Virus record (IMG/VR): IMGVR_UViG_3300028025_006304
Span: 32,001 to 96,000 of that record
DNA length: 64,000 nt
From: a virus
Reading direction: 5' to 3' (one strand)
Shown: piece after piece, positions 3,350 through 46,184 of the stretch
Numbering within the stretch: the stretch's first letter is position 1
Layout of the letters: every line of letters starts with the position of its first letter
Made by a program: the position numbers and the translations under genes
Notes under the pieces: model-generated
What the model saw: only the letters and a program-made list of their open reading frames with translations
Told to the model about the DNA's origin: nothing
Database searches by the model: none

Positions 3350-3958
3350 TTAGATGATTGGGCAGGTACCTTTTGCACAGAGAATTTCTGTTAAAATTCC
3401 ACTTGCTTTACTGTAATGGTTAATTGTGTTGTATTCTTTTCCTTCTTTTACTAGATGCATAAATGAACCTGGGTTGGATGGGGTTGATACAAAATCCCAA
3501 CATAGTAGTTCAAAATCGTCTTGTACTTCCATCATGCCTTCTCCCATTGGTTTAAGTGAGCCCATACCACGGGAAGAAACACCTACCATTACTCCACTGT
3601 CGATAAGTGCTTTAAGGATATTCCCGGAGACAGTCGGTAAAATTTCGATTTTACCTACAACGTGATCACCATCCCACCATATGTCGCGGATGATGTGGCA
3701 AACGTTTTTTAAATTGATTATTGACGAATCTGGGTGGTCTAATTCACCTGTGGCTCTGCTTTGTTTAACCACATCCATGTATTTGTCTATTTCACGCTGC
3801 CAAAGGTCTTTAGCGTAATATCTACCGTTACCATTTTTAACTTGAGCAGTAGCTAAGATACCTTCAACAAGGGGATTACCAGCTGGAGATTTGGTACCTT
3901 CAGTTAATTGAACAGGGTTAACCTGAAACGCTTGGGTTTCAATTAATACTTGTTTCAT
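3350..3958 (-). CDS. gp21: Prohead maturation protease, T4 gp21-like
   Basis: NGNGRYY, GELDHP, GVSSRGMGSL, WDFVSTPS motifs. Confidence 0.93.
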   Translation of the reverse strand: MKQVLIETQAFQVNPVQLTEGTKSPAGNPLVEGILATAQVKNGNGRYYAKDLWQREIDKYMDVVKQSRATGELDHPDSSIINLKNVCHIIRDIWWDGDHVVGKIEILPTVSGNILKALIDSGVMVGVSSRGMGSLKPMGEGMMEVQDDFELLCWDFVSTPSNPGSFMHLVKEGKEYNTINHYSKASGILTEILCAKGTCPII

Positions 3959-4632
3959 TATTTTTTCTTAGGTAGGTCACCATATCCGCTTGCTTTGTGT
4001 TTGCCTTTAGCGGGTTCTCCTTCACCTAAACCAGGTGATGTTTTTGTATAGCCAATTCCTTTAATACCAAATGCAGCATTTTCTACATAGTATGAAGAGT
4101 TTTTAGCTAAATTTTTTCTAACAATTTCTTTTAATTCATCTATTGTTTTATCAACATTTTTAGGATCTTTCATCTCTGCGTAGTATCCCTCTAAAAATTC
4201 TTGACCATACAAATTGTCAATATTTTTATCATTAGAATATTCAAATCCAGTCATTTCTTGACTGTCTATAACTTCTTTAGATAAACTTTTTTCAACAGCT
4301 TTAGTACTTTGAATACCCATTGATTTAGGAGCAGAAATTGGATTTTCTTGTTGTGATGCGTATGTTTTACCAACGCCACCAGCTACTGTATATTCCTCGT
4401 TTACGTAGGAATCAAATGCTTTAAATGGATCAAAAGTACGTTGAGTAACAATACCACCACCTACTTTAATTTCGCTTAGAACACCTCTTTGTTTTAGAAT
4501 AGTAGTAACCTCATTATATGAGGCATAGTTTGTTACGTATTCTGGGAATAGTCTACGAGCAGATTTTAAGAACATATCTTTATGTCCTTTTCCTTCCTGG
4601 ATTAGATTAAATTGTTCTTGTAGGGTTTTCAT
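3958..4632 (-). CDS. Hypothetical head-associated protein with CTS-like N-terminus
   Basis: 224-aa ORF coupled to the protease; begins MKTLQEQFNLIQE. Confidence 0.6.
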   Translation of the reverse strand: MKTLQEQFNLIQEGKGHKDMFLKSARRLFPEYVTNYASYNEVTTILKQRGVLSEIKVGGGIVTQRTFDPFKAFDSYVNEEYTVAGGVGKTYASQQENPISAPKSMGIQSTKAVEKSLSKEVIDSQEMTGFEYSNDKNIDNLYGQEFLEGYYAEMKDPKNVDKTIDELKEIVRKNLAKNSSYYVENAAFGIKGIGYTKTSPGLGEGEPAKGKHKASGYGDLPKKK

Positions 4633-4633
4633 A

Positions 4634-4897
4634 TTATTTTTGTGGGATTACAGTTGAAACTGGGTAAAATACTACAGCTCCTGCTGATAAAGATGCACTT
4701 GTTATATATAAAGGAATTGTTGTGCCTACTGGGATGTTTGTCCATAAGGCTACACTAGAGGTAGATACATTATTACCTGCATAGTCTCTAAGACCTGCAA
4801 AAGTTGCTGAACCTGATACTACAGTAAAACCAGCAAATGAACCAGTAACACTAGTAGTAGAAATAGTTCCGTTTGTATTAAAAGCAGTATTTGCCAT
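4634..4897 (-). CDS. Small Ser/Thr-rich virion protein (decoration-like)
   Basis: 87 aa, TGS/SGS/SAS motifs like the tail proteins. Confidence 0.5.
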   Translation of the reverse strand: MANTAFNTNGTISTTSVTGSFAGFTVVSGSATFAGLRDYAGNNVSTSSVALWTNIPVGTTIPLYITSASLSAGAVVFYPVSTVIPQK

Positions 4898-4900
4898 TTT

Positions 4901-5149
4901 TTATTGATTTAATAATTTTTCAATATCGTTTAAATAATCCATAATTAGATCTGTGGGTTTTACCACGGCAAATGATTCTGGTTTTTCTTTATAGAATGCT
5001 ATTGTTTCGTCTTTTGCTCTATCAATTGCTGGGTATAAACTGTTTAATCTAGATTCAATGGCTTTGAATGCATCAATGCGTTGATTTTGGAACTCTATTC
5101 TTTTAGGATCAGCCTCGTTGATTCTAGTCTTTAGTTTATACTTATACAT
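4901..5149 (-). CDS. Hypothetical protein
   Basis: 82-aa ORF; late motif 3 nt upstream; leader ends RINE. Confidence 0.6.
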   Translation of the reverse strand: MYKYKLKTRINEADPKRIEFQNQRIDAFKAIESRLNSLYPAIDRAKDETIAFYKEKPESFAVVKPTDLIMDYLNDIEKLLNQ

Positions 5150-5160
5150 ACCTATAAATA

Positions 5161-5736
5161 TTAAGGTTTTCCCCAGAGGTATTTAGTGTCTATTGCCTTA
5201 GATTGGGCAGCTAATTTTACGGGATTAACTAGTTTATACTTAAAGTTTTTAGTATAGTAGTTATTCGTTACTCCTTTAGGACCTGCTTTGGGTCCCTTAC
5301 CTAATGATGCACCTGGAGATGCTTCGGGTAATTCTTGTTTTCCCATCTTTTTAAAGGCAAATGGAGTAGCATATTGACTACCTGCTCCAGGAGAGAATGA
5401 TCCGGCTCCAGAACCACCACCAGTACCAGTCATTTCAAACATACCTTTAATTTTTTGGTATTCTGAAGGGTATTTGGTACGCATGTGGGTTCTAAGATTA
5501 TTTCTTAAAACTCTAAATTGGTTATATATTTCTCCAAATTTAGGGTCGTTTATTACCTGGGGATCAGTAACGATTGTCCTAAGGGTTTCTAAAGCGCGGT
5601 TAATGTCTAATAAAAGGATTTCAAAATCAGGAACGTATGTTACGTCTGATTCATTTTCTTCGCCTCCGGGTGTGGGTACAAGGATAAACTTTTTACCTCT
5701 GGCTATTTCCTGAATTTTATTAGATAGAGAGTCCAT
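5161..5736 (-). CDS. Hypothetical head-region protein
   Basis: 191-aa ORF in the operon; Gly/Lys-rich C-terminal modules. Confidence 0.6.
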   Translation of the reverse strand: MDSLSNKIQEIARGKKFILVPTPGGEENESDVTYVPDFEILLLDINRALETLRTIVTDPQVINDPKFGEIYNQFRVLRNNLRTHMRTKYPSEYQKIKGMFEMTGTGGGSGAGSFSPGAGSQYATPFAFKKMGKQELPEASPGASLGKGPKAGPKGVTNNYYTKNFKYKLVNPVKLAAQSKAIDTKYLWGKP

Positions 5737-6589
5737 GGGCTGATTTAAGTTCTTCTACAAGTTCACAGTATTGGAGTAAATCAACTATATTTTCGTTTTT
5801 AATAGGTTGATTTTTTTCTATCTCAACTATAAGAGGTAACACTTCATTTAACTTAATTTGAACAGCTTTATCTAATATAGTATTGCTAATAATAGCTAAC
5901 TCTTCTTTAAGTTGTTGGATTCTATTATTATAGAATGTTCTTAATTTAGGGGTAGAATCAACTGATGTAATAAATTCTTTTAATATTTCTTTTTGTGAAG
6001 GATATAAATCAGAATATTTACCATTAAATTTCTCTAATAGAATTTTATAAGTTAACATTCTTACATCCTTATCGTATGTTTGAAATTCTTCTAAAACCTC
6101 GTCTTTTACTTTTTCTGGGTTAACTGGTCCAAGTGTAAGGTGTTCTAAAATGCTATACTTATTAGCTACAATTTGATCAGGGTTGATCATCTCTATTGAG
6201 CTTTGTGCCTCAATTAGTGTATAAAAAGCAGCTTGTGTTTTATAGTTAGGAAGTTTTGTTTTAAAAAACTCATCTAAATTATAGTGCTTTTTAATCTCAT
6301 TGATAAGATTATATTTTTCTCTTTTAAGAGTTTTTTTATTAAGCTTTTTAGATGACTCTAATAGAGTTTGGATAAGTAAATTAGAACGAGATTCGTTTAT
6401 TTTTTTACTCTTAGTTAAGGTCTCGTATAATTTAAGTTCTTTACCTAATTCGCTTTTAACAAAAAATTTCTTAATAATATTTAATGCGGGTGATTGATTA
6501 CCATTGAGGGTGTCAGCTGTTACTTGGCGTACCAGTAATTCAAATAGAATACCAGTATTTTTATACTTTGAATGTTTTATTAAAGACAT
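5720..6589 (-). CDS. Hypothetical helical protein of head module
   Basis: 289-aa ORF overlapping the next gene; no recognised family. Confidence 0.65.
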   Translation of the reverse strand: MSLIKHSKYKNTGILFELLVRQVTADTLNGNQSPALNIIKKFFVKSELGKELKLYETLTKSKKINESRSNLLIQTLLESSKKLNKKTLKREKYNLINEIKKHYNLDEFFKTKLPNYKTQAAFYTLIEAQSSIEMINPDQIVANKYSILEHLTLGPVNPEKVKDEVLEEFQTYDKDVRMLTYKILLEKFNGKYSDLYPSQKEILKEFITSVDSTPKLRTFYNNRIQQLKEELAIISNTILDKAVQIKLNEVLPLIVEIEKNQPIKNENIVDLLQYCELVEELKSAHGLSI

Positions 6590-6595
6590 ATTAAT

Positions 6596-7246
6596 TTATT
6601 TATATTGCCATTTATATCCGTATGCTGTTTTCCTTTTACCACTACAACACTCACATATAGCTCCACTATGTTTACTTAAAGATAAACTTGCTGAAAGCAT
6701 TGAATCAAATTCGGTTATAAAATTATTATTAAGGTCTAATTGAATTATTTTTTTTCTTTTAGGTGAGGGTTTACCAATTTTTGAAAGACGTATTTTTTCA
6801 TTTCTTTCTTTGTTATTAATTAACCAAGGTAAAGTTCCTCTTTTTTTTCCTTTTCTACTCAAAGATTGGGAAATTTTCCACTTTAAACTTTTGGGTTGTT
6901 TTGCGGATGCACTTTTTTTAGATTTTGTTTCTAATGTGTCTTTAACTCCTTTTTTCCCTTCACCTCCATTAGTTAAGTTAACTAAACTCCCTTCATGTAA
7001 ATCTTTTCTACCATAAAGTAATATAAATTCAATTTCTTTTTGACATGCTTCATTCCAAGAAAGATCATTTAAAATTATATCAACTTTATAAGAAGTTTTA
7101 TTAGTAACATTATACCAATATTGATTTCGATTAACCACTTCATTAGCTCTTTTATATAAACCTATTTTAGAGGGTAAATCTTCTCCTATCCCTACATAAA
7201 ATGGAGAGTTAGTATCTAATCTAATATGTCTGTAAATATAAGCCAT
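6596..7246 (-). CDS. Free-standing GIY-YIG-type homing endonuclease with NUMOD repeats
   Basis: N-terminal YIYRH...FYVGIG and NLTNGGEG; basic NUMOD3-like centre; C-terminal NUMOD1-like (IIQLDL...CCSGKRKTAYGYKWQY); more AT-rich than its flanks. Confidence 0.85.
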   Translation of the reverse strand: MAYIYRHIRLDTNSPFYVGIGEDLPSKIGLYKRANEVVNRNQYWYNVTNKTSYKVDIILNDLSWNEACQKEIEFILLYGRKDLHEGSLVNLTNGGEGKKGVKDTLETKSKKSASAKQPKSLKWKISQSLSRKGKKRGTLPWLINNKERNEKIRLSKIGKPSPKRKKIIQLDLNNNFITEFDSMLSASLSLSKHSGAICECCSGKRKTAYGYKWQYK

Positions 7247-7269
7247 TTATTATAAATATATTAAGATAT

Positions 7270-9159
7270 TTAATCAGTCAAATTAGACTCATCTAATAAC
7301 GATTCTTTAGCTTTATCGCTTTGAAATACTAGTTTCTTGTGAAGACCCTCTAATAATGTTCTATTTTTAGATAATTCGATTTTAGTAGTCTCTAATGCTA
7401 GAGGTGAACCACCTTTAAATTGAGTTCTACCTGTACTTTCTTGGTCGTCGTTTTTCATATCTTTTCTACCTAAACGATCTCTACCCAATGCGTTATCCTG
7501 AGTGTTTATGTTAGATGCTTTTTCTTTAGGGCGACCTAATTCAGCTTTTTCATCATATCCATCAGGTAATGAATTATCAGCATACCTTTCTCTTCCATAT
7601 AAGGAAGCTAGATCGTGTGGTGTTCCGTATGAACGTCCTGTCTCAAGGGGATCATTACCTTCTTCAGCTATTTGAGTATTACGGAATGCGCGTTTTTGGT
7701 CTTGGATGATCAAATCTCGATATTCATCGTATTGGTCCTGGCTGAATTGGAATACGTTATCATAAATCCAATCGGATGGGATGATTTTAGTATCCAACAT
7801 ATCTTTAGCTAGGGCTACTTTTTCTTTTAGTAGTGCAACTTTTTCTTGCTCTGCAATAATTGAAGGAGTAGTTAACTTAAGTTCAAAGTTTGTTAATTGC
7901 TCACCGTCATACCCCTGTGAGTATAGGTGTACTAAAGCAATCTTGTATAGCTCAGATAATAAGATTCGTTGAATACGATCAATAGTGCGAGCAAAACGAA
8001 TATCTTCAGCAGCTAACGTAGCTTTACCAGTTAAGTCTTTTTCATAGCCCATGAACGCTTTAGGTACTTTAAGGGCAGCAAATAGTTTATCTCTTAGGTA
8101 AGCTACGTCTTCGATACCATTGTATTCTAGACCTTTTGTAGTGTCGATTTTAGTTGCAGTATCATTACCTCTTACTGGGATGTAGAAATCCTCAAGTAGG
8201 TTCTGCATGTTGTATTTTAAGTTATATTCACCTGTTTTCTCATCCATCAATGGAGTTTTCTTCATTGTGTTGATAGTTTTCTGCATAAATGCATCAACCT
8301 CTTGTGGTGGGATATTACCTACGTTAATGTAGAAAATACGTTTTTCTGGAGCGCGAGCAATTCTGTGGATAAGCATCGCATCTTCCATTAACACGTATTG
8401 CTTAAATAAGCGACGTCCTGGCTCAAGATATGAACGACCATAAGGAAGATAGTTTACATCTGTTAATAAGCGGAAGTGAGCTACCTCGTAGTTATCAAAT
8501 ACAATCTGATTTTCGGATGGTTTGGTATTTGGAGTAGCATAGTAACCTGAACCACCTGTATAGTAACCATCGGGAGAATAAAGGAACTGAACCTTTGCTG
8601 GGTTTTCCATATCAAAGTTTTCGCGTCTTTGAATATGGTATGCTGTGTATGGGATTACGTTATATACACCAAACTTTTCTGCGATCTCTAGCTTTAAGAA
8701 GAAATCACCATATTTACACATTTGACGAACCCAAGACCAGAGGTTGAATTCAATGTTAAGTACATCGTAGAATAGATTGTAAAGGATTTTTTGAATATCA
8801 TCGTCGCTACTTCTAATTTGAAGTACCTCTCCCATATCGTTTTTTAATGTACATTCATCCGAGATAATATCAAGGGCAGAAGCTACAATAGCGTCTGTAT
8901 CCATCACATCATAATCACTATAAAGATAAGTTCTTAGATACTGGTATTGTATATTAAATTGTGAACCTAAAAGAGATGTAGAGGCTGGGTTAGTGTAGAT
9001 TTTTCCAAATCTGTCTACCAGAGAATTTGTTTGAAATTCACCACTGGTTTGAATATGATCAGTATCAACTACTTTTAGCTGATTGCCTCCTTCATTCCTG
9101 ATGACAACATCAGTTGAAAAGAGTCTTCTTAATCTTGAAAATAAACTAGTATCAGCCAT
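7270..9159 (-). CDS. gp20: Portal protein, T4 gp20-like
   Basis: PYGRSYLE, EDAMLIHRIARAPEKRIFY, EDFYIPVRG, LFAALKVPKAF motifs. Confidence 0.93.
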   Translation of the reverse strand: MADTSLFSRLRRLFSTDVVIRNEGGNQLKVVDTDHIQTSGEFQTNSLVDRFGKIYTNPASTSLLGSQFNIQYQYLRTYLYSDYDVMDTDAIVASALDIISDECTLKNDMGEVLQIRSSDDDIQKILYNLFYDVLNIEFNLWSWVRQMCKYGDFFLKLEIAEKFGVYNVIPYTAYHIQRRENFDMENPAKVQFLYSPDGYYTGGSGYYATPNTKPSENQIVFDNYEVAHFRLLTDVNYLPYGRSYLEPGRRLFKQYVLMEDAMLIHRIARAPEKRIFYINVGNIPPQEVDAFMQKTINTMKKTPLMDEKTGEYNLKYNMQNLLEDFYIPVRGNDTATKIDTTKGLEYNGIEDVAYLRDKLFAALKVPKAFMGYEKDLTGKATLAAEDIRFARTIDRIQRILLSELYKIALVHLYSQGYDGEQLTNFELKLTTPSIIAEQEKVALLKEKVALAKDMLDTKIIPSDWIYDNVFQFSQDQYDEYRDLIIQDQKRAFRNTQIAEEGNDPLETGRSYGTPHDLASLYGRERYADNSLPDGYDEKAELGRPKEKASNINTQDNALGRDRLGRKDMKNDDQESTGRTQFKGGSPLALETTKIELSKNRTLLEGLHKKLVFQSDKAKESLLDESNLTD

Positions 9160-9182
9160 TTTTTACTTTATTATTATAAATA

Positions 9183-10748
9183 TTAAAGGAGCCAACGGAG
9201 GTCTTCCTGTTGATTACCTATTTTTTGTGTATAGGGATTTTGGACAGCATTACCTGAATATGCCCCTCCGTGTGATTTTGTCATTCCGTTTAAAGCAGCT
9301 CTAGTCATATCAAGCCCTTGCTGTTGGAATTTAAGTGAGGTATCTCTTAAAAGCATTCCGATACCAAACGACATTACTAAATCATCGTTATATCCACTTT
9401 GTGCCTCTGGTCTACCATTTTTCCAAATGAATACTTTCATTTCCTCTAGTAAACGTTTTGAGTGAATCGTTACAGAACGATCACCAACATATTCTCTAAA
9501 CTTATTTACCACAAGTGGTCTGGTTTTTAGTGACATTGTAAAACCAGGAGTTAAATTGTTACCATTTTCATATCGGTTAAAATACGACTCGGCTGTCACT
9601 AAGTCACTCTTAGGTGACTGGTAGAAGTTCTGATAACCGCGTTCTATAACAGTCTCTATTGTTGCCCAACCTATTGAAGCATTTTCTATTACTAATAAAG
9701 CATTATTGTATTCGGAGGCTAACCCTACTAGAAAATGTCCAAATTCTTTTGGCGATAATTGCCCCTTATATTCTGCAACTTGAGTGTTTGTTTCGATATC
9801 GAGTATGTGGGCAGCAGAAAAGTCTCTACCATCACCTCGAGCCACGTCGGCTACAACCATGTAATCTCGCGAATAATCAGCGGGTTGCCAAACCCATAGG
9901 TTCTTATCTGCCCCGCGTCTTTCAACCGGTTCTTTAACGGTAGTTTGGGCTATAAATTCGATCCATTCGGAATAGAATACCGTTTCTCCTGAGGTACTAA
10001 AATCACAGTCACATTCCTGTGCTGCCATTCTAGGATCACCTAATAATTCATCTTGTTTCTTTCTCCAAGCTTCATCCCTCTCTGGGTGGACATACCATGG
10101 TAACTTGATAGGTAAAAAGTCGTTCTCTGCTGCTTCCGCTTTCACCCACGTCTGGTGAAACCAGTTTCCAGTTCCATAAGGTGTTGAAAGTACTATTGCT
10201 CCACCACCCGTGGCAAGTGTTTGTTGTGCTGATGCCCATGTTTCTGCTACGTTATCGATAAAAGCAGCCTCGTCAATTACTAGCAGAGATACTGCTTCTG
10301 AACGTGCTGCGTCGGTATTAGAGGATTTTGCTTTAACTTGTGATCCGTTTGCTAGTTTTAAACTCAAACGGTTGTTTTCTATTTCTTTTACTTTAAGCCA
10401 GGAAGGTAAGTTATCGTACATGAAACGAACCTTGGTAACCATGTTTTTAGCTGTCTCCTGAGTGGTTGCAAGACACAACACGTTTTTGTCTTTATGGAAG
10501 GTCATTAACCACAAAGAATAGCTAGCAGCTAGAGTTGATATACCTAGCTGCCTGGATTTTAAAACAATAGAGTATGGGTTATCTCTCCATAAATGGAGTA
10601 CCTTTTCCTGGAATGGGAATAGGTTAAAAGTGATCCTACCGCGTTGTGGGTGTTGGATATAACAGTATTTACGCATGAAGTGGCCCGGGTCTTGGGCGCA
10701 CTTAATGTATTCCTGTTGAATTATTTGTCTTAAATCTTGATCACTCAT
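9183..10748 (-). CDS. terL: Terminase large subunit, gp17-like
   Basis: KSRQLGIST Walker A, LLVIDEAAF Walker B, STPYG, nuclease VADVARG and DDLVMS. Confidence 0.95.
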   Translation of the reverse strand: MSDQDLRQIIQQEYIKCAQDPGHFMRKYCYIQHPQRGRITFNLFPFQEKVLHLWRDNPYSIVLKSRQLGISTLAASYSLWLMTFHKDKNVLCLATTQETAKNMVTKVRFMYDNLPSWLKVKEIENNRLSLKLANGSQVKAKSSNTDAARSEAVSLLVIDEAAFIDNVAETWASAQQTLATGGGAIVLSTPYGTGNWFHQTWVKAEAAENDFLPIKLPWYVHPERDEAWRKKQDELLGDPRMAAQECDCDFSTSGETVFYSEWIEFIAQTTVKEPVERRGADKNLWVWQPADYSRDYMVVADVARGDGRDFSAAHILDIETNTQVAEYKGQLSPKEFGHFLVGLASEYNNALLVIENASIGWATIETVIERGYQNFYQSPKSDLVTAESYFNRYENGNNLTPGFTMSLKTRPLVVNKFREYVGDRSVTIHSKRLLEEMKVFIWKNGRPEAQSGYNDDLVMSFGIGMLLRDTSLKFQQQGLDMTRAALNGMTKSHGGAYSGNAVQNPYTQKIGNQQEDLRWLL

Positions 10749-10752
10749 AACT

Positions 10753-11172
10753 TTATAGTAGGAATATTAGGGTTACCCCTACAATCCCGGTTCCTAAACC
10801 TAACGCTGCCCCTTTCCAGAAATTGGATCCTTTTTCTCGTTTAAGGGCTTGTATTTCATCGTTTTTTAATCGTATTTGTAAATCTTTTTCTTTAACAATT
10901 CCTTTGCAATCATTTAGACGACCAACATTATTTTCATACTCTTGCTCTCTAATGGCCATCAATTTACGAAGGTTTTCAATGTCACGCAAGTAACTTTGCT
11001 TTTCTTGTTGACAAAAATCACCTGTTTCTAGATCAACCATAATCTGGCGAACTATAGATTCAGGAAAGCATATTAACGTATCGCCATTAATGACTGTAAC
11101 GCTTTGAGAAATAGCCGGGAAGCTCATCAGTAGAAAGCTTGCCAAGCTCAGCCATTTTTTTATCGTATTCAT
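10753..11172 (-). CDS. Secreted coiled-coil protein with C-terminal membrane anchor (spanin-like partner)
   Basis: Signal peptide MNTIKKWLSLASFLLMSFPAIS-Q, coiled coil, C-terminal GAALGLGTGIVGVTLIFLL; overlaps the upstream gene by 86 nt. Confidence 0.5.
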   Translation of the reverse strand: MNTIKKWLSLASFLLMSFPAISQSVTVINGDTLICFPESIVRQIMVDLETGDFCQQEKQSYLRDIENLRKLMAIREQEYENNVGRLNDCKGIVKEKDLQIRLKNDEIQALKREKGSNFWKGAALGLGTGIVGVTLIFLL

Positions 11173-11443
11173 TTTTTGCTCTTTTACGTCGTTTTTCTTC
11201 TTTGTGAAGTTCTACTAAAACAGAATCTGCTTGTAAACGTAGTTTTACGTTTACTGTTTCTAGAGAGTCGGAATGGTCCTCTAGTTTTTTAATTCTAGTC
11301 TCGCTTTCGATTCGTTGCTGTTTCAATTGTTGTTGAAATGCCTTTTTATATGTGTTGGGCATCATGAACATTTGAAAAAGGATAACCCCCAGCAAAGTGA
11401 TTATCACCAATAGCTGGGGGTTCTTTTTAATTAAAGATAGCAT
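11087..11443 (-). CDS. i-spanin-like protein
   Basis: N-terminal TM helix (LLVIITLLGVILFQMF) followed by a long coiled coil. Confidence 0.5.
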   Translation of the reverse strand: MLSLIKKNPQLLVIITLLGVILFQMFMMPNTYKKAFQQQLKQQRIESETRIKKLEDHSDSLETVNVKLRLQADSVLVELHKEEKRRKRAKNEYDKKMAELGKLSTDELPGYFSKRYSH

Positions 11444-12243
11444 TATTTTAACTTAGCTATAGCTGCATCAATAGCAGGCTTAGCTTTTGCCCATTCAGCA
11501 GCGTATTGTTCTTGGTCTAATACACGGTTAGCAGCATCTACAATACCTTTGTCTCTTAAACCTTTTAAGAATGCTTTAACCATTTTGGTTTTTTCTTGTT
11601 GGCGTAGTTGAGAGATTTTGCTTTTCTCTACTTTACCACCTGAGCTAGCAAGTGATCTTAGTTCAGCATCAGATGGGCCTTCTTTATCGTCAGCGTAGTA
11701 TTTTCTCTCGTCACCCATTTTGAATGTCTTTTGTGATGCTTTTTTAGCAGCAGCAGACATTTTTGGAGTAGCTGATTTTGGACGACCACGCATTCCTGGT
11801 TCTTTTGGTTCTGCTGCTGGTTTATTTGGGTCTGCTTTTCTACCACGTTGCCCAACTTCTCTTTCGCCTTTTACTAGGTCGATAAATTTATTAAGTTGGT
11901 TATCGAATAGATCATCGTCTGGTCCTAAAGCAGCTTGAACGTCATCGTCGGCTTTAATAGCCTTACGAATATCTTTCTTTTCAGCTTCTTTGTTTTTTTC
12001 AATTACTTTTTCAATTGCGGCTTTTAATTCACCAGCAATTTTAGCCATCTCGTTAAGAGCTTCCTCTTCTTCTAAAGGTTGAATCTTAGCTCCTGCTTTT
12101 GTAAGATCAACTTTTTCTTGACGAGAAAGAGCTTGCACTGCTGTTCCGCCTTTGGGTCCAGTTATTGTGCTTACCTCTTCAGCCTCGTTAAGCTCACTTA
12201 CAATCATTTCACGAATAGCTCTTTTTAATTCAGATATTTTCAT
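11443..12243 (-). CDS. Lys/Ala-rich putative DNA-binding head protein
   Basis: ATG at 12243 (MKISELKRAIRE); AT-hook-like QRGRK and MRGRPK. Confidence 0.55.
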   Translation of the reverse strand: MKISELKRAIREMIVSELNEAEEVSTITGPKGGTAVQALSRQEKVDLTKAGAKIQPLEEEEALNEMAKIAGELKAAIEKVIEKNKEAEKKDIRKAIKADDDVQAALGPDDDLFDNQLNKFIDLVKGEREVGQRGRKADPNKPAAEPKEPGMRGRPKSATPKMSAAAKKASQKTFKMGDERKYYADDKEGPSDAELRSLASSGGKVEKSKISQLRQQEKTKMVKAFLKGLRDKGIVDAANRVLDQEQYAAEWAKAKPAIDAAIAKLK

Positions 12244-12273
12244 CTCTAACAAATTATGATTTTCTTATAAATA

Positions 12274-12807
12274 TCACAAAGAAAGTGCCTCTTTAACCTG
12301 TTTAATACGATTTTCAGTAGTTCCTGAGATGCTATGAAAATTTTGCATTCGATGTTTGTTTGACTTAATAAGGTTATTAATTGTAAAATCAATCAAGTTA
12401 CGATATTCAAGATCTGTCTCACGTACACCATTATTTTCCATCTCTACACCTTCAGGAGATACATAGAAAATATGATCATATTCTGAGATAAGATTGCGAG
12501 CAAAATCAGTAAATGCCTCTTTATCAATATAGTTCATTGTTTTAGATGCCATAGCAAACGCCATTACATCAATCACAGTGCGGTCTGTGATAATATTTTC
12601 TTGCATTAGCTCGCCAGAACGTTCAGCCAAAAACACAATTTGACCTTTTAATGTTGAATCAGTATTCAATGGAATACCTAACCCCATCAAATACTTTGAA
12701 CGTTCTGTTCTAAAAGTATAGTTTTTAAATTCAGGCAATTTTTTCAATGCATTTACAAGTGTAGTTTTGCCTACTGATTGGGTACCACAAAGTCCGATAC
12801 GGGCCAT
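12274..12807 (-). CDS. NadR-type/AAA_28 P-loop nucleotide kinase
   Basis: RIGLCGTQSVGKTT, ITDRTVIDVMAF, NGVRETD motifs. Confidence 0.75.
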   Translation of the reverse strand: MARIGLCGTQSVGKTTLVNALKKLPEFKNYTFRTERSKYLMGLGIPLNTDSTLKGQIVFLAERSGELMQENIITDRTVIDVMAFAMASKTMNYIDKEAFTDFARNLISEYDHIFYVSPEGVEMENNGVRETDLEYRNLIDFTINNLIKSNKHRMQNFHSISGTTENRIKQVKEALSL

Positions 12808-12813: not shown

Positions 12814-13488
12814 TTAGTTTTTATTTTTATTTCTATTTCCTATTTGATTATTATATCCAAAGGATTTTGCTATTTCTGAGGTTTTGAATAAGGGTTGGGT
12901 GTTGGTGTAATGGAAAGCTTTTTTTTGTTCTTTTTCTTGTGTCAAATCAAATTTAGTACATGCTATAATATGATCAATTTCCCATACTAATCCATAATTC
13001 TCCCAATTCATCTCAGGTAAAAAAAGTTGTTCAAGGTATTGTTTATAAAAATCTAATTCACAACCTAAATATTCTAAGGTTTTTTGGGATTTTTTTCCTT
13101 TTCCTTTTCGTAAAGCTTGATATATTCTATTTCTCATATTAGAGAAGGAAGCATAAAATATATCATTTTTCTTTTTATTGGATATCCAACGATTTATAGA
13201 TAATTGAATTTTTTCTTTATTATTTTTTCTATACTCTACATGATAGTTTGATACTTTATCTTTATTTTGGGTATACCATTGTTTTTGATATTCCAATACT
13301 TGGGTTTTATTTTTTTCTTGATATTGTTTAGTTTTATCTAACAAAATCTCTCTATTATTTTTATACCTTTCAGTATCATAGGATTTTTTACATTCTTTAC
13401 ATTCAAAAACAAAACCATCCTTAGAGTTTTTATTCTTAGAAAATTTAGATAATTCTTTTGTTTCTTTACATTTTTTACATAATTTCAT
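12814..13488 (-). CDS. HNH homing endonuclease
   Basis: N-terminal CKKC...CKEC zinc finger; WENYG..WEIDHII and HYTNTQPL; very AT-rich; own late motif at 13505-13512. Confidence 0.8.
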   Translation of the reverse strand: MKLCKKCKETKELSKFSKNKNSKDGFVFECKECKKSYDTERYKNNREILLDKTKQYQEKNKTQVLEYQKQWYTQNKDKVSNYHVEYRKNNKEKIQLSINRWISNKKKNDIFYASFSNMRNRIYQALRKGKGKKSQKTLEYLGCELDFYKQYLEQLFLPEMNWENYGLVWEIDHIIACTKFDLTQEKEQKKAFHYTNTQPLFKTSEIAKSFGYNNQIGNRNKNKN

Positions 13489-15661: not shown

Positions 15662-15934
15662 TCAGTCTAAATGTATTTTGACTTTTAAGGTGTCTTCACC
15701 TTTCCAAGCCCTGTGCCATTTGTGACGCATCATAAATATACGCATTTCGGGTTCAAGGTCAAAAGGTAACTGATCATCAAATTGCAGTTTCCAACCTTTT
15801 CCTACCTCTAGAATCTCTATTGTACGATTCTCATCATCGCGGTGCCAGAGTAGTTCAATCGGATCTATATTATCGTCGAACTCTCTAATAATGTATTGTT
15901 CTGTAACCTCTAAATCTTTATACGGTTTTGTCAT
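15662..15934 (-). CDS. Small cupin-like hypothetical protein
   Basis: MTKPY start; LLWHRD, WKLQFD, WHRAWKG motifs. Confidence 0.55.
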   Translation of the reverse strand: MTKPYKDLEVTEQYIIREFDDNIDPIELLWHRDDENRTIEILEVGKGWKLQFDDQLPFDLEPEMRIFMMRHKWHRAWKGEDTLKVKIHLD

Positions 15935-16343
15935 CTGTAAGGGGACCTCCAACAACCCAAGCATCACAAGTCCGAGCTGCTGCACATTTAAATTTTAAGA
16001 ATCTACAATATCCTAATTTACCGGCTTTAATTACATCAAATGGATCTTCGGTACCTTCATCATTACCTATTCCTTTAGCTATACAATCTAATGTTTTAGT
16101 TGTAATATCAAATGCAGCACAGTTACCACAGAGTGATGTTTTAGCTTCTTCTACAGAATCAAGCTTCCACATGTCTACTTTAGCTTGCCAGAATTTGTTA
16201 TTTGGTTCATTAGGATTTAATGGACCATAACCATATTCATTGATTGCCTTTTGTCTGTTTTGAAGGTTAAGTTCAATGTTTTGAGTTGGAGCTGGACATT
16301 TGTTTAGTTCAGCTTCACTTAGTATGTTGACTAGTTTTATCAT
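15918..16343 (-). CDS. Cys-rich hypothetical protein with leader MIKLVNILSE
   Basis: CGNCAAFD, GYC...FKCAAARTCDAW, suggesting metal binding. Confidence 0.65.
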   Translation of the reverse strand: MIKLVNILSEAELNKCPAPTQNIELNLQNRQKAINEYGYGPLNPNEPNNKFWQAKVDMWKLDSVEEAKTSLCGNCAAFDITTKTLDCIAKGIGNDEGTEDPFDVIKAGKLGYCRFLKFKCAAARTCDAWVVGGPLTDDKTV

Positions 16344-16657
16344 TTTTCTCTGATAAGTAATTCACCTAATACCTCTAAACGTCCAACTTCACGTTGAAAT
16401 TCGGTTTGAGTCATTCCTAGTGATATTTTCTTTAGGGTTTGATCAAATTCTTTTTTGGCTGCTTCTTTGTCAAATTTACCTTCAGCTGCTTTTTTATAAT
16501 ATGGGGCTTTTACTTTAAAGTGATGCCATGTTAATAGAGATAAACCGCCTTTTTCTTCAGCGTTTTCAGCAATTTTAGCTGCTCCTTTACCTCGTGTTAC
16601 AGCAAAATCCTCAAATGATTCTTTTGCTTCTTGTAGTATATCTAATAGATTAATCAT
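16340..16657 (-). CDS. Hypothetical protein with leader MINLLDILQE
   Basis: True start 16657, directly after the upstream stop. Confidence 0.65.
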   Translation of the reverse strand: MINLLDILQEAKESFEDFAVTRGKGAAKIAENAEEKGGLSLLTWHHFKVKAPYYKKAAEGKFDKEAAKKEFDQTLKKISLGMTQTEFQREVGRLEVLGELLIREK

Positions 16658-20267: not shown

Positions 20268-20906
20268 TTATTTAATTTTATTCCAAAGTGGGAAAGCTAA
20301 ACCTTCGTTTAATTTTTCTCCGGCTTTTTTTCCTTTTTCGTATTCGTATCTTTCGTCGTCGCCAACGTATTTTTCTTCTTGATCTTCAACCTCGTCTACT
20401 TTTGCTCTTGTTGGCTCGTCTCCTGCAACTACAAAGTCGCGAGTAAAGAATGTGATTGTATTACCAACCTGAGTGATAAATTTTTGATCACCAAATTCTT
20501 CTGCTTGTGCTCTTAGAGTTTCAAGTGTGTCAAGAATTTTTCTTGTTTCGTTTGGAAGTGAAGATAAAGAAACGATTTTCTTGTCTACTACGATCGAGTC
20601 ATTTTTTTCTTCTCCACCGTCTGTAGTTTCTGCTTCAGCGTCTACTTCAATATCTGTTTCTTCTTCGTCTCCTTTAGCTTCTGCTAGATAAGGATCAACT
20701 GCAGTTCCAGTGATACGAGCTAAGATTTCTTCAGCTGATTCTTCTTCGTCGGCTTCGTCTAGATTAGCGATCATTTCGTCTAGATCTTCTTCGTATAGAT
20801 CATCGTACATACCACCTAAAGCAGCATCGTCGTCTTGAGCATTAGTAAAGTCTGCTTCTGATAGGTAAGCAGCCTTGATCATTTCTTTTAAGTCGGATTT
20901 TTTCAT
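20268..20906 (-). CDS. Acidic hypothetical protein with leader MKKSDLKEMIKAAYLSE
   Basis: 212-aa ORF; late motif at 20929-20936. Confidence 0.7.
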   Translation of the reverse strand: MKKSDLKEMIKAAYLSEADFTNAQDDDAALGGMYDDLYEEDLDEMIANLDEADEEESAEEILARITGTAVDPYLAEAKGDEEETDIEVDAEAETTDGGEEKNDSIVVDKKIVSLSSLPNETRKILDTLETLRAQAEEFGDQKFITQVGNTITFFTRDFVVAGDEPTRAKVDEVEDQEEKYVGDDERYEYEKGKKAGEKLNEGLAFPLWNKIK

Positions 20907-20941
20907 TGCAATGAATTTGAGTATATGTTATAAATATGTGT

Positions 20942-26656: not shown

Positions 26657-26679
26657 ATACGCGCGTTTACGTATAAATA

Positions 26680-30885: not shown

Positions 30886-31899
30886 TTAAAAATCTAACTT
30901 TATTCTAATAAGGGCTTCCTTAGTGAAATCCTTAACCAATGGTCTAGACAATTTAGCTACGGCTAATAACTCATTAGCATCGTTGTATAAACCAACTGTT
31001 GTAATATATGTTTGTGGGTTATTAATAAAGCTTGAATAAAGTACCTCACCAGTTGAACCTGAGATAAATGATGGGTTAGTTGTATAGTTAAACTCAGCGT
31101 TCTGTGGTCTTACATAAACATAATCTGAGGTAATATTTTCTTGAGAGTTTAGAGTAAATGAAGCACCAGTTTTAATAGCATCAAATAAAGCTGTATAGTT
31201 GACTGTATTGCTTGTGTTAGTAGAGGTAATTGTTAAACCTATACCACCCCCAGCTCCTCCGGCTACAGCTAAAGCTGCAGAGTTCAATAAAATAGTTCCC
31301 ATATCCGGAATAAACCAACCATATGAACCTGAGTTGGTAGAATATCCTGTTCCTGAATAAGCTGATCCATTAGATCCAGATACAATTTGGTATACTCTAG
31401 TTCCATTAATATAAGGTACTACAGAAATATCATTACTGTTATCTGTTAATTTAAGAGTAGCTCCACTCTTAGTTAATGTAAGATTTAAAGAACCTGGGAA
31501 AAGAGATTGTTTATAATTTGATCTCTCAACTGAGATAATATGGAATTGAGATTGAGTTACATTACCAAATATAAAAGCTGAGTTCTCATCCTCTAGGATA
31601 AGATTTCTATACTGACCATATAAGGTTTTGGATGGAGAATATCCTACGACATTTGTGTCATATGGTACTGAACCTGAACCTACAGCATTAGCATACCCAA
31701 CATAGAATTGGATAGCGGCTGTATCTAAAGTAGAGGCAGTTTGGTAAGTAGCTAATACATATGAACCTTGTGAGCTATTTACTTGGGTTGAGGAAGTAAA
31801 AAATGTAGTTAAGTTATATACATTATTAGTCCAACAAGGTGCTGTAACCGAATCAGCTGAGACTAAGAAATCGGATGGGGTTAATCTTTTAAATGACAT
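30886..31899 (-). CDS. Virion baseplate/tail protein, paralog of 29886-30881
   Basis: C-terminal TYITTVGLYND..ELLAVAKLSRPL. Confidence 0.6.
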   Translation of the reverse strand: MSFKRLTPSDFLVSADSVTAPCWTNNVYNLTTFFTSSTQVNSSQGSYVLATYQTASTLDTAAIQFYVGYANAVGSGSVPYDTNVVGYSPSKTLYGQYRNLILEDENSAFIFGNVTQSQFHIISVERSNYKQSLFPGSLNLTLTKSGATLKLTDNSNDISVVPYINGTRVYQIVSGSNGSAYSGTGYSTNSGSYGWFIPDMGTILLNSAALAVAGGAGGGIGLTITSTNTSNTVNYTALFDAIKTGASFTLNSQENITSDYVYVRPQNAEFNYTTNPSFISGSTGEVLYSSFINNPQTYITTVGLYNDANELLAVAKLSRPLVKDFTKEALIRIKLDF

Positions 31900-31908
31900 A
31901 TCTTAATC

Positions 31909-32562
31909 TTATTGTTTTGTAATAGTTACTGGGATTGTAATACGAGCACCTGAATCTCTACCTACTACTGTTAAAGTGGCTTGTAAGATTGAATTTGAAC
32001 CAAATAATGTATTTACAGTAGTTGCGGTTAAGTTAATTGTGGTACCAATTACTGTTTTAGATACGTTAGTACCAACTGTTGTAGTTGAATTAAGAGCTAT
32101 TGCATCTGGGGTGTTGATACCTACACCATTGAATTGGCTAAGTGTTCTAACATCTGAGATAGTGGCTGTGTAGCCTGAGGTCTCATAAGTTGAATTACCA
32201 CCTAGGTAATTTAGGGTTTGAGGAGTGATTGCTAATGAAGCCCCTTGTTTAAGAGTGATTGCAGCATATCCTAGATCAAGTACTGGCATTTTAGAGGTTC
32301 CACGAGGTAGTGTAGTTAACACATACTTCATTTCTTGAGTTACAAGAGGGAATGCTTCTAGAAGAGGCATGTTTTCAATTGCTTGACCATAATAAGCTGA
32401 ACCTGAAGGGTTAGTTGGATTATAAAGTGTATAATCGATTTCATCATCAGATAAAGCAAATTGAGTAATACGGAATGAACCGTCGTTTTTAGCAAGTAAC
32501 TCTCTACCTACATCTGTTAAGATAGCATCTACTGTTACTACTGCGTTATTTAAATATCCCAT
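31909..32562 (-). CDS. Virion structural protein
   Basis: VDAILTDVGRELLA...FALSDDEIDY; Thr-rich; late motif at 32587-32594. Confidence 0.6.
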   Translation of the reverse strand: MGYLNNAVVTVDAILTDVGRELLAKNDGSFRITQFALSDDEIDYTLYNPTNPSGSAYYGQAIENMPLLEAFPLVTQEMKYVLTTLPRGTSKMPVLDLGYAAITLKQGASLAITPQTLNYLGGNSTYETSGYTATISDVRTLSQFNGVGINTPDAIALNSTTTVGTNVSKTVIGTTINLTATTVNTLFGSNSILQATLTVVGRDSGARITIPVTITKQ

Positions 32563-43498: not shown

Positions 43499-43502
43499 TG
43501 TC

Positions 43503-45368
43503 TTATAATGTTACTACTCTACCTTGAATGTCTGTGTTAGGATATTTTACTTCAAAAATCATAGGATCAATTGAAGGATAAACCACATTATTAATAGTTG
43601 CACCTGGAATATCATATGCAAATTCAGAATAACCTAAATCTATTCCTGCTTTATTTGATATAGTTATATTTTTAACAGTTTGAACACCCTCAATCTCATC
43701 TAAAATAACATATAAATCTCTTAAGATAATAGGCTCATTAATCTGCCAATTTTTAATAGCAAAAAAATCTTGCATTGCTAATATACACCTTGTAAGTACT
43801 TCATTTGAATTATAATTAGGAAGTACTATAATATCAAAATTAATTCCAATATTAATAATAAAGGCGTCTTTAATGCTAATTGAATCGTTTACCATTCTAT
43901 ATTGAGAAAGATAAGTAGATAAATTTTGCTTAAGAGCAAGAGAAGCAGTTCTTAATTTACTATTAATATCAAATGATAAAACATATAAATCAAGCACCGA
44001 AGCAGCCGCCCCTGAAGCTACTGATTGGGCTTTAGTAGGTTCAATGTAAGCTTTAGCTATAACACCAAATTTAGCTGTCATCGATAATGCTCTTACTAAA
44101 TAATCATCTTGGGTTACGTTACGTAATTGAGTTGCAAAATTAGCTGAAGCATTCTGTCTAATCTCCTCAGTTGTGTCTCCATCTCCACCCCCATCAGCAG
44201 CTGTTAAATTGTTAACAGCTAAGGTTCCAAATATATAATTAGCGGTATTAGCCGTTAAATTATTGTTTAAGAATTGGGGAGTACCGCTTGTAATTGACGT
44301 AATTGTATTAGCTGGTACATTGGCTGAAACTCCTCCTCCCGTTAAGTATCTAACGGTTAAAGTAGTATTTGAAGGAGCAATACCATAATTCCGGGTAAAA
44401 GTAAAATTAGAGGGAGAAAAAGCAGTTGTAAGCTTATCTATTTCAAAAGGTAAACCTAAACCAACGTTATCCGAGTTAGGTAAAATTTCCTCATCAGTAT
44501 CTGTATAAGTACCAGCACCAAATTGTAATTGAAGGAGGGTATTATTTAAGAAACGAGATGTAAATCTTCTTTGTACTGCTCTAAGTTGTAAAAGATATGG
44601 TGTATCACCTTGATATTGTGATAGATTAGGATCGTTTACATTAGTATTTTTAATAGAGTCAAATACTGTATCTTGAGCTAAATAATCTACCTCATACCAA
44701 GTATTACCATTAGAATCTACTATATCTAAAATACCTACAATATTTGGAGAAGATATTTCTACAGTTGAAAACTGTTGAGGAGTTCCAAATGAGAATGATG
44801 TAGTGTTAATAGTTGAAGAAATTGCCTTGCGAGTTTTCTTTATTAAATAATAATCTACTACAGCACCCCCACTTGAAACTTGATATACAGTTACTTCTGT
44901 AGGATCACCTGAAGATGAAACACTAAAATCAACTGGATCTTCTATAATGAAAGAAACATTATCAGGAGATGTAGAAGATACTACAGTGTTAGCTGGGATA
45001 AATAAAGCATATGAAAAATCAGGCTCATAACTTCCACCAGTAAATATAGCTGGGACTTGTTGATAAAAATCTACATCAACTGTAGCAACCTGCGTTACAT
45101 TTGGTTTGTAACCAAACATATAAGCTAGCTCATACAAATTATTAGTTTGACGGGCATATTGCAAGTATGTTTCTTGAATTTGATTGTCTAAATAGAAAGA
45201 CATAACATCACCTACATAAGATGCCATCTCCATAAACATCATACCGGGTGATGATGGAGAGAAGTCATTATAGGTTGTAGGAAAATAAGTACGAGCATAG
45301 TTAATTAAACTTGCTCTTAACTCGGTAAAATCCTTGTTTATATATTGTATGTTACGTCTTATGGCCAT
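43503..45368 (-). CDS. Baseplate wedge protein (T4 gp6/baseplate J-like)
   Basis: YINKDFTELRASLINYA, VMSFYLD, GGGDGDTTEEIRQNA...RNVTQDDY. Confidence 0.85.
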   Translation of the reverse strand: MAIRRNIQYINKDFTELRASLINYARTYFPTTYNDFSPSSPGMMFMEMASYVGDVMSFYLDNQIQETYLQYARQTNNLYELAYMFGYKPNVTQVATVDVDFYQQVPAIFTGGSYEPDFSYALFIPANTVVSSTSPDNVSFIIEDPVDFSVSSSGDPTEVTVYQVSSGGAVVDYYLIKKTRKAISSTINTTSFSFGTPQQFSTVEISSPNIVGILDIVDSNGNTWYEVDYLAQDTVFDSIKNTNVNDPNLSQYQGDTPYLLQLRAVQRRFTSRFLNNTLLQLQFGAGTYTDTDEEILPNSDNVGLGLPFEIDKLTTAFSPSNFTFTRNYGIAPSNTTLTVRYLTGGGVSANVPANTITSITSGTPQFLNNNLTANTANYIFGTLAVNNLTAADGGGDGDTTEEIRQNASANFATQLRNVTQDDYLVRALSMTAKFGVIAKAYIEPTKAQSVASGAAASVLDLYVLSFDINSKLRTASLALKQNLSTYLSQYRMVNDSISIKDAFIINIGINFDIIVLPNYNSNEVLTRCILAMQDFFAIKNWQINEPIILRDLYVILDEIEGVQTVKNITISNKAGIDLGYSEFAYDIPGATINNVVYPSIDPMIFEVKYPNTDIQGRVVTL

Positions 45369-45775
45369 TAGTTAAATGCTATTTGAATTTCATCTGATAT
45401 AGCGGTATCTATAACATTGTAAGTTAAGGATACTGTTATAGTGTTAGTATCTGGGTCTTGGAATATATCTAAACTAGCTACTATCACATTAGGGAAGAAA
45501 CGAGATAGTTGTGATTGAATATTTTCTTTAAGACCGTCTAAATTACCAGTAGTAATTTGTTCAAAAATAAAAGCTCTTAAACCTGAACCAAATGTAGGAT
45601 TAAGATATCTTTCGGGTGGGTTGGTTAAGAAAAAATTTATAAGATTATTTCTTATAGCATCTTTTGTAGTATATGTAGAATAAAAAACACCTGGAGCATT
45701 AAAAGGGATAGCGACACCAACAGCCGTTCCTGGCTTAGTATCGATTGGGAATATTTTTTGTGCTCCGAATGCCAT
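45368..45775 (-). CDS. gp25: Baseplate wedge subunit gp25-like
   Basis: AIRNNLINFFLTNPPERYLNPTFGSGL..IFE. Confidence 0.85.
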   Translation of the reverse strand: MAFGAQKIFPIDTKPGTAVGVAIPFNAPGVFYSTYTTKDAIRNNLINFFLTNPPERYLNPTFGSGLRAFIFEQITTGNLDGLKENIQSQLSRFFPNVIVASLDIFQDPDTNTITVSLTYNVIDTAISDEIQIAFN

Positions 45776-45776
45776 T

Positions 45777-46184
45777 TTATTTCTTGCCCATTAAGCCCAT
45801 AATCATATCTAAACCAACATTACCTGAAGGTAAAGCGGATCCTTCACCTGATGTGTTCATCCCAGGAGCTACTTGTAGAGTTGTTTGGTTTATACCTGCT
45901 CCTCTAGCATCGGATGAATTAAATGAGAGAGTATCTTGCCCTCTTCGCATATCTCCCATAATACTTTCCATCATAGCTCTTTTTTCAGTTGCTGATGTAG
46001 TACTTGGTTGAGCTGCTATTGGAGTGCTCGTAGTAGCTATCCCATATCCAATTCCTCCTACAGGAGCTTCCATTATTGGAGTCTTAGGAGCACGAACTGC
46101 TTCCAAAAGGATATCTTTTAATTCCTCTTGGATAGCTTCTCTAACTGCTTCTTTAATAAATGATTTTAATTCGCTCGGTTTCAT
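45777..46184 (-). CDS. Hypothetical protein with leader MKPSELKSFIKEAVREAIQEELKDILLE
   Basis: 135 aa; late motif 4 nt upstream. Confidence 0.65.
   Translation of the reverse strand: MKPSELKSFIKEAVREAIQEELKDILLEAVRAPKTPIMEAPVGGIGYGIATTSTPIAAQPSTTSATEKRAMMESIMGDMRRGQDTLSFNSSDARGAGINQTTLQVAPGMNTSGEGSALPSGNVGLDMIMGLMGKK

Follow-up and report, generated by a model that had tools for sequence, protein, structure and literature searches.

Interchangeable N-terminal leaders ending in L/I-x-E on unrelated late proteins of an uncultured Far-T4 phage resemble capsid-targeting sequences

Why do so many unrelated proteins in the late region of an uncultured phage begin in much the same way? The question is raised by a window of 64,000 nucleotides, which comprises bases 32001 to 96000 of a 118.6-kb single-contig virus record (IMG/VR IMGVR_UViG_3300028025_006304) with nearly all genes on the minus strand. 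The phage is an uncultured T4-superfamily myophage of the 'Far-T4' branch with Bacteroidota-type hosts. Its nearest annotated relative is Flavobacterium phage vB_FspM_immuto (hereafter immuto; capsid identity 53%), followed by Microcystis phage Mel-JY01, a metagenomic megaphage and Rhodothermus phage RM378. A first-pass annotation of the window had proposed that one N-terminal leader ending in (L/I)-x-E is shared by more than a dozen unrelated proteins and tags a large, enzymatically diverse cargo for packaging into the head and ejection into the host. In the analysis described here the single leader gives way to at least four or five discrete leader families with a common architecture, and these leaders are probably prohead-targeting propeptides that resemble the capsid-targeting sequence (CTS) of phage T4 and are removed by an S77-type prohead protease.

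The N-termini on which the proposal was built are as quoted, with all 14 present on the minus strand at 4632, 5149, 12243, 16343, 16657, 20906, 21223, 25493, 25856, 26656 and 46184, together with the scaffold (3142), the prohead protease (3958) and the major capsid protein (MCP, 1903). The start at 12243 is an ATG, and a TTG at 12252 would lengthen the protein by three residues; the start at 16657 is an internal ATG of an open reading frame (ORF) that opens with TTG, and its orthologs begin at the same Met. The bearers are also unrelated, in that BLASTP at E < 0.01 gives no similarity between them past the leader. By contrast, (L/I)-x-E does not define the set. A loose [LI]xE with its Glu at residues 6 to 25 occurs in 46 of 153 proteins (30%) compared to 19.5% of interior windows, and this bare motif marks many early and small-ORF proteins, a distribution that the first-pass annotation had itself regarded as damaging to a targeting system. 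The loose motif was rejected as a definition of the set on both grounds; a restriction to the late region is seen with the family-specific leaders only. The stricter pattern hydrophobic-x-x-hydrophobic-[LI]-x-E is about 3-fold enriched in the window phage, immuto and T4, yet is not specific as a stand-alone marker because the DNA polymerase and ligase of T4 match it too.

The families were found by all-against-all comparison of N-terminal 14-mers, using BLOSUM62 pair scores over the 14 residues. The cliques of the window phage include: (i) family A, MK(K)SxLKxxIKE, which begins the genes at 12243, 20906, 25856 and 46184 (6/6 pairs score at least 20) and often extends to a second [LI]xE near residue 20, and (ii) family B, the 10-mer MIxLxxILxE, which begins those at 16343, 16657, 26656 and genome position 29444 just outside the window (5/6 pairs are listed at 20 to 23). 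Strict bearers of these leaders number eight in the phage, four of each family. A KYKLKE-type leader, M..KYK[IL]KE, is found on head-module proteins and includes the quoted MYKYKLKTRINE at start 5149, while immuto has two further families, C (MENFDLKKFLVENKL) and D (MKKQILSEQFRRMQKLAGIITE). The leaders span 10 residues in family B, 12 in family C and 12 to 20 in family A (up to about 28 in 45777-46184), and in all families a Glu at P1 is preceded by hydrophobic residues at P3, P4 and P7. When T4 is put through this unsupervised comparison as a control, IPII and IPIII come out, along with two related starts, MKTFKEF. Position-specific scoring matrices (PSSMs) derived from the A and B leaders of the window alone recognise immuto N-termini across the genus boundary, with scores that few or none of ~47,000 interior positions attain (E 0 to 0.005). 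The two N-terminal cliques and the PSSM matches in immuto thus argue for several leader families of one architecture, not a single leader.

The leaders differ from one another in the synonymous codons used for Ser, Ile, Leu, Lys and Glu, which argues that selection acts on the leader peptide. Constraint is on the hydrophobic face and the Glu while the positions in between drift, and the sequences upstream of the leader genes are not conserved, save for a late-promoter-like 9-mer. Such a pattern is difficult to reconcile with a DNA-level feature, such as a translation-initiation region or a recombination cassette that shuffles the 5' ends of genes, with a peptide that is itself functionless; the chance of this is very remote, even though AT-rich genomes often have MKK (AAA AAA) starts and leader swaps show that recombination occurs at leader-cargo junctions. 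Chance, paralogy and a nucleotide-level element were rejected on the BLASTP null between bearers, the PSSM scores and the synonymous-codon differences. The leaders also do not qualify as Sec/Tat or lipoprotein signal peptides, having no hydrophobic run and instead alternating charged and hydrophobic residues; the product of 10753-11172 is, by contrast, classical signal-like.

Immuto, a phage of Flavobacterium sp. LMO8, carries 12-14 leader genes, among them those at record positions 24569, 25061, 81525, 102294, 102880, 103366, 103806, 113188, 117631, 118632 and 123355. Most leader-bearers of the window are without an immuto ortholog, while the flanking core genes are 30-76% identical. A census of family A, in which a degenerate DNA pattern for the leader was scanned over IMG/VR, finds at least 120 contigs (the L-numbered loci below, each of no more than 15 kb). 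The pattern fixed the E12 site, with ORF-start position and conservation at the positions left free serving as internal controls. Among the pattern matches listed, 119 of 138 begin an ORF of at least 50 aa, and 118 of these ORFs are complete and 112 unique. Residue 5, which the pattern left free, is Glu or Asp in 102 of the 112; I14, L18 and E20, likewise free, are conserved, and conservation collapses past E20. A second [LI]xE with its Glu at residues 16-24 is present in 90 of the 112 unique ORFs compared to a background of 9%. The cargo past residue 25 forms 52 BLAST clusters among the 112 unique ORFs listed, with 48 singletons. In loci fetched through leader A, 29 ORFs begin with family B, compared to an expectation of 0.4, and at least 12 with family C. 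One locus, L009:399-2225, has four consecutive, mutually unrelated leader-C genes, each starting MDNFDLRKYLAE[GS][KR]L, upstream of a leader-A gene and the gene of the large terminase (TerL).

Leaders are exchanged between homologous cargos. Families A and C alternate on immuto 102294 (A) and L009:1091-1678 (C), which are 70% identical from residue 18 on, and families B and C on window gene 15918-16343 (B) and L052:943-1386 (C), which are 42% identical (E = 7e-34). An ART-HYD1-like cargo carries B in L052:4391-4846 and A in L067:12872-13501 and L119:8171-8839, and in either form GKQVGTLYHFT follows directly after the last [LI]xE; the Tox-ART-HYD1 match of this cargo is sub-threshold (20.8 against a Pfam cut-off of 25 bits). 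T4 Alt, which is packaged, is likewise an ADP-ribosyltransferase. Families C and D are exchanged on another cargo family, and the cargo homologs of 20268-20906 carry A, C-like or D-like leaders. In the swapped pairs, cargo similarity begins immediately after [LI]xE. In relatives, the domains of the 844-aa fused multi-enzyme at 22959-25493 are encoded by stand-alone genes that have individual leaders, as exemplified by free-standing L106:9662-10105, in which MIKLIDILLE/RDPKTGTG aligns with NVLKE193/GDPKTGTG inside the fusion (a slash marks the putative cleavage point here and below). Since the single-domain homologs bear their own leaders at the matching junction, the internal [LIV]xE junctions of the 844-aa protein may be polyprotein protease sites.

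The assignment of a T4 gp21-type protease to 3350-3958 was borne out. His75 and Ser128, in the motifs GELDH75P and GVS128SRG, align with the catalytic H85 and S140 of T4 gp21, and the N-terminus, MKQVLIE/T, parallels the MNEPQLLIE/T of T4 gp21 with the site at a T4-like position. The scaffold-like protein, which has no Pfam or PHROG match and is 64% identical to its immuto ortholog over the first 45 residues, begins MANRNLLKE/A compared to MLKEQLIAE/A of T4 gp22, again with a T4-like position of the site. The quoted MSQVQQLLE of the MCP, on the other hand, is probably not the maturation site. In a MAFFT alignment the T4 gp23 maturation site, LTE65/A, stands opposite VVE61 of the window protein, VSE of immuto, ISE of Mel-JY01 and LME of RM378, and the MCP propeptide is predicted to be residues 1-61 (1721-1903), ending QLVVE61/Q. 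The C-terminus of the protease holds LVKE and ILTE, i.e., [LV]xE sites near the end of the protein, which are possible autoprocessing sites; C-terminal cleavage is reported for gp21-type proteases.

Leader genes are linked to such head modules across the relatives. Homologs of the window TerL, portal, protease, scaffold or MCP are present in 79/120 leader-A loci, and PF03420 is found in 32/57 records with leaders, among them every one of the four with a completeness of 90% or more. Of the fragments, 24/47 contain PF03420 compared to ~9 expected (summed completeness, 9.3 genome equivalents), an expectation that derives from record completeness and not from the S77 base rate in comparable IMG/VR contigs; on this count leader genes cluster near the protease. 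A family-A gene lies just upstream of TerL in many IMG/VR contigs, as does 11443-12243 in the window, and many leader genes lie between portal and scaffold.

The 9-mer upstream of several leader genes, ATATTTATA, has 23 copies on the sense strand and none on the antisense strand, i.e., the five window sites given in Table 1 and 18 further sites in the genome. Most copies are 11-46 nt upstream of late gene starts, including sheath, tube, portal and a 780-aa tail-block gene at the position of the tape measure annotated in the immuto record. The motif stands directly before 5/8 A/B genes (Fisher p=0.002) and is a candidate late promoter, with a role that may be comparable to that of the T4 late promoter motif, TATAAATA. 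In immuto the relaxed motif ATATTTAT is just upstream of leader genes 24569 and 25061, both among metabolic genes; a third leader gene, 1803, is beside a DNA polymerase fragment.

The anatomy of the leader is clearest in the zeta/PezT-like kinase (25853-26656), a family-B protein with 2405 homologs and Foldseek matches to PezT, zeta and AvrRxo1. Across 111 homologs of the kinase, no substitution occurs at M1, I2, L4 or E10 and S3, L7 and L8 are almost as constant; positions 5, 6 and 9 and linker residues 11-14 are variable. The AlphaFold2 model has a mean pLDDT of 91, falling to ~50 for residues 1-10, in which residues 4-10 form a detached helix that is followed by a 5-residue coil before the strand at 16-21. 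The leader would be a short amphipathic N-terminal helix of the form hydrophobic-x-x-hydrophobic-[LI]-x-E (P7, P4, P3; Glu at P1). Late in infection, this helix would bind the scaffold or core of the assembling prohead and bring along the attached protein, and the gp21-type S77 protease would then cut after the Glu and release the cargo inside the head. Family A would have two cleavage sites (~E12 and ~E20) and family B one (E10). Of the first-pass proposal, the capsid-targeting part gains from the strictly N-terminal position, the [LI]xE end, the unrelated hypervariable cargo, the swaps, the head-module link and the T4 CTS-like constrained positions, whereas the packaging and ejection part we infer.

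The same helix could instead be a conserved interaction element, for chaperone docking, oligomerisation, membrane association or contact with a regulatory partner, in which the Glu belongs to the binding motif and is not cleaved. The leader pattern is that of a generic amphipathic helix, leader cleavage is itself inferred, immuto has its own GroEL/GroES, one bearer is among the baseplate genes and a major family occupies the place where a small terminase (TerS) would be expected. This explanation is nonetheless unlikely, as it leaves unaccounted for that the leaders of each family close with precisely the gp21 motif, [LI]xE, that conservation halts at the final Glu, right where the cargo homology of swapped pairs starts, that the leaders are tightly linked to S77-type head modules, and that scaffold, protease and MCP have matching sites at T4-homologous positions.

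Several observations weigh against prohead targeting. One gene with leader A, 45777-46184, is placed within the baseplate block. Directly upstream of TerL, the small terminase position in T4, stands the A-leader family of widest occurrence, and were this family TerS a fate in the capsid interior would make no sense; the identity with TerS is argued against only weakly, by the absence of a family match and the disordered model. Mel-JY01 and RM378 share the same head genes (a prohead protease is annotated in Mel-JY01) yet are without obvious leader families in the regions inspected, with only faint A/B-like N-termini in the Mel-JY01 head region and none in RM378. PSSM cross-recognition between the T4 CTS/gp24 and the window leaders is not significant in either direction (the family-B PSSM puts T4 gp24 second of 282 N-termini at E=0.28), and homology of the leaders to the T4 CTS is thus unproven. 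In immuto, the association of promoter-like motif and leader is not significant (2/14 vs 15/206), and the completeness-based expectation for PF03420 belongs here as well. A tblastn search with two widespread leader-A families and 45777-46184 against 50,697 cultured-phage records gives no homolog, so proteomic data cannot be borrowed for these families, and the literature yielded no virion proteomics for the window phage, immuto, Mel-JY01, RM378 or the IMG/VR relatives.

Prohead-targeting propeptides remain the probable identity of the leaders with these points included, and the fate of the cargo is then to be considered. The bearers could mostly be core or scaffold accessories, analogous to gp67, gp68 and gp22, that are chopped up and expelled in maturation and are not delivered to the host. 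Several are highly charged, of low complexity or predicted disordered (e.g., pI 4.1 for 20268-20906, pLDDT 0.55 for 11443-12243), 20268-20906 is weakly similar to the scaffold (BLASTP E=2e-4), and the stretch between portal and scaffold that holds many leader genes is the site of the T4 core genes, whose products are cleaved to fragments (PMC9026906). Such a uniform fate is distinctly unlikely, in that some cargos are confidently folded enzymes or domains, i.e., the kinase, the sub-threshold ART-HYD1-like family and the leader-bearing nucleotidase and nucleotidyltransferase homologs, and in that hypervariability of cargo between relatives is the signature of T-even internal-protein loci and not of essential core parts (PMC3012670). 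Under prohead targeting, some cargos are probably ejected with the DNA, and others are probably core components that get degraded. An internal or ejected role would suit the basic 93-aa protein (20942-21223), the kinase and the enzyme domains. Degradation as part of the core could be the fate of 20268-20906, which is very acidic, and of 11443-12243, which is Lys-rich and disordered.

The claim of an enzymatically diverse, ejected cargo finds partial support at most, and little in the window itself. The kinase is one clear enzyme with a strict leader (Pfam Zeta_toxin, 58 bits); the leader of the 844-aa multi-enzyme is weak, and most other bearers are small and without a recognised family, several being highly charged or predicted disordered. 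Pfam and PHROGs give almost no match for the cargos. A bolder picture, which is tentative and rather doubtful, is that a whole uncultivated branch of T4-like aquatic phages runs a plug-and-play capsid delivery, in which interchangeable tags are recombined onto dozens of fast-turning-over proteins. Ready-made enzymes would enter the host together with the DNA and act before phage gene expression, e.g., by pre-empting host defences that target nucleotides or NAD; they would comprise the zeta/PezT-like kinase, the ADP-ribosyltransferase-like family, and domains of the 5'-nucleotidase and NMN-adenylyltransferase-like kinds. The head would also be where polyproteins like the 844-aa fusion are divided into their enzymes.

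Table 1. Leader-bearing genes and head machinery of the window. Slashes mark putative cleavage points; motif, late-promoter-like 9-mer.
Feature	Position	Strand	Leader or N-terminus	Further evidence
Major capsid protein (Gp23 family)	143-1903	-		Pfam Gp23 245.6 bits
Scaffold-like protein, gp22 position	1928-3142	-		Synteny: between protease and MCP
Prohead protease, T4 gp21 family (Peptidase_S77)	3350-3958	-		Pfam PF03420 99.6 bits (cut-off 27); PHROG 207; PDB 5JBL E=1e-16
Conserved head-module protein, 224 aa, just upstream of protease	3958-4632	-	MKTLQEQFNLIQE/GKG	
Small head-module protein, 82 aa	4901-5149	-	KYKLKE-type, MYKYKLKTRINE/A	Motif 5153-5161
Head-module protein, 191 aa	5161-5736	-	MDSLSNKIQE/I	Homologs elsewhere start M..KYK[IL]KE
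Conserved 289-aa head-module gene	5720-6589			Window gene
Portal	7270-9159			Window gene
Large terminase (TerL)	9183-10748			Window gene
Lys-rich protein upstream of TerL, 266 aa	11443-12243	-	Family A, MKISELKRAIRE...ELNE/A, residues 1-20 (12184-12243)	Motif 12266-12274
Cys-rich protein, 141 aa	15918-16343	-	Family B, MIKLVNILSE/A (16314-16343)	B-leader homologs 87-92% identical
Protein of 105 aa	16340-16657	-	Family B, MINLLDILQE/A (16628-16657)	
Very acidic protein, 212 aa (mature pI 4.1)	20268-20906	-	Family A, MKKSDLKEMIKAAYLSE/A (20856-20906)	Motif 20929-20937
Protein of 93 aa, very basic mature part (pI 11.6)	20942-21223	-	MITQERLQEIITE/S	Fits hydrophobic-xx-hydrophobic-[LI]xE
Fused multi-enzyme, 844 aa (HIGH nucleotidyltransferase ... 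HAD 5'-nucleotidase)	22959-25493	-	Weak C-like, MDELTKFLVNE	PHROG 2643, 3041
Protein of 120 aa	25494-25856	-	Family A, MKKSVLKSLIKE/A (25821-25856)	
Zeta/PezT-like P-loop kinase, 267 aa	25853-26656	-	Family B, MISLIRLLKE/V (26627-26656)	Motif 26672-26680
Protein of 135 aa within baseplate gene block	45777-46184	-	Family A, ~28 residues, MKPSELKSFIKE...ILLE/A (46101-46184)	Motif 46189-46197

Homologs of individual bearers keep recognisable leaders. The orthologs of 3958-4632 in immuto, L115, L067 and L014 retain TLQExYNLIxE-GKG, and homologs of 4901-5149 start MYKYKLKE or MYKRNIKE. For 16340-16657, the immuto ortholog is 76% identical and starts MRLLELLRE, and all six IMG/VR homologs have a B leader. 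The L122 homolog of 25494-25856 is 91% identical and starts MKKSELKNLIKE. The baseplate-block gene 45777-46184 has homologs in L118 and L096, and only the leader in common with the syntenic immuto gene 81525. The mostly disordered prediction for 11443-12243, which has a homolog at L067:9332-9934, is that of an ESM Atlas model, and the Atlas gave no usable lead on this protein. The 93-aa protein resembles an internal DNA-binding protein; it falls in PHROG 23735, which is without assigned function, and its homolog at L055:4166-4597 starts MEDKLKKLIKEIITE.

Between TerL and the first leader-A gene, 10753-11172 encodes a 139-aa protein with a signal-peptide-like N-terminus, a coiled-coil middle and a hydrophobic segment at the C-terminus (spanin- or membrane-protein-like), for which immuto has no ortholog. 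A GIY-YIG-like ORF (6596-7246) sits between the portal gene and the 289-aa head-module gene, and a MKxCKKC zinc-finger ORF (12814-13488) has a 39% identical paralog at genome position 31470-32057. These three ORFs, likewise without immuto orthologs, are probably homing-endonuclease-type insertions; the late-promoter-like motif is directly before two of the three (7246, 13488).

If the tags act as in T4, the first 10-20 residues of a protein would be enough to tell which proteins are injected or packaged by a large group of marine and freshwater phages, most of them uncultured, and would point to candidate host-takeover and anti-defence proteins that are otherwise unrecognisable. The CTS principle of T4 would then be old and widespread, with several interchangeable flavours and a scale far beyond T4. 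The tags could also serve to load foreign proteins into Bacteroidota phages. The idea is directly testable in immuto, a cultured phage with no fewer than 12 genes of this type. The tag principle itself is already known from T4 and the giant phages. What is new is that several leader families coexist and are interchangeable, that family A is bipartite and 20 residues long, that cargo families number in the dozens and that all this occurs in an uncultivated Far-T4 branch; no description of the leader sequences or of such a CTS system was found in the literature, CTS in cyanophages included.

In T4, gp24 and Alt have short propeptides that are removed by the gp21 protease, as is the CTS of IPI, IPII and IPIII. 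The CTS of IPIII comprises the first 10 residues, in which targeting depends on positions 4 and 7 and processing on positions 8 and 10, and gp21 cleaves after L/I-x-E (PMC9026906). The leaders of the Far-T4 phages are like the T4 CTS in that they are strictly N-terminal tags of 10-20 residues, end in L/I-x-E and are carried by unrelated proteins, with an S77 protease of conserved catalytic His and Ser in the same genome. Family B equals the CTS of IPIII in length (10) and in the constrained positions 4, 7, 8 and 10. Unlike T4, this lineage has at least four or five coexisting leader families that replace one another on homologous cargos, its family A has a length of ~20 residues and a tandem pair of putative sites, and the predicted cargo set is far larger (8 strict bearers in the window phage, 12-14 in immuto and 52 clusters among the matches listed).

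The internal proteins of T-even phages are diverse and have only the CTS in common (PMC3012670). Their ip loci, which encode diverse anti-restriction proteins, share with the leader genes the combination of a conserved leader and a cargo that is hypervariable between close relatives, sometimes in tandem arrays as at L009:399-2225. By contrast, the leader genes described here are spread over ~45 kb of the late region and are not confined to one locus, and they belong to uncultivated Far-T4 phages of Bacteroidota-type hosts. The giant phages phiKZ, 201phi2-1 and SPN3US have a diverged gp21 homolog that cleaves many of their head proteins after Glu, and a targeting role has been proposed for the propeptides (PMC9026906, PMC5694885). 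The leaders were not assigned to this phiKZ/SPN3US class: the giant-phage propeptides are mostly >100 residues and end in S/A-x-E or A-x-E, while those of the Far-T4 phages are 10-28 residues with Leu, Ile or Val at P3, as in T4.

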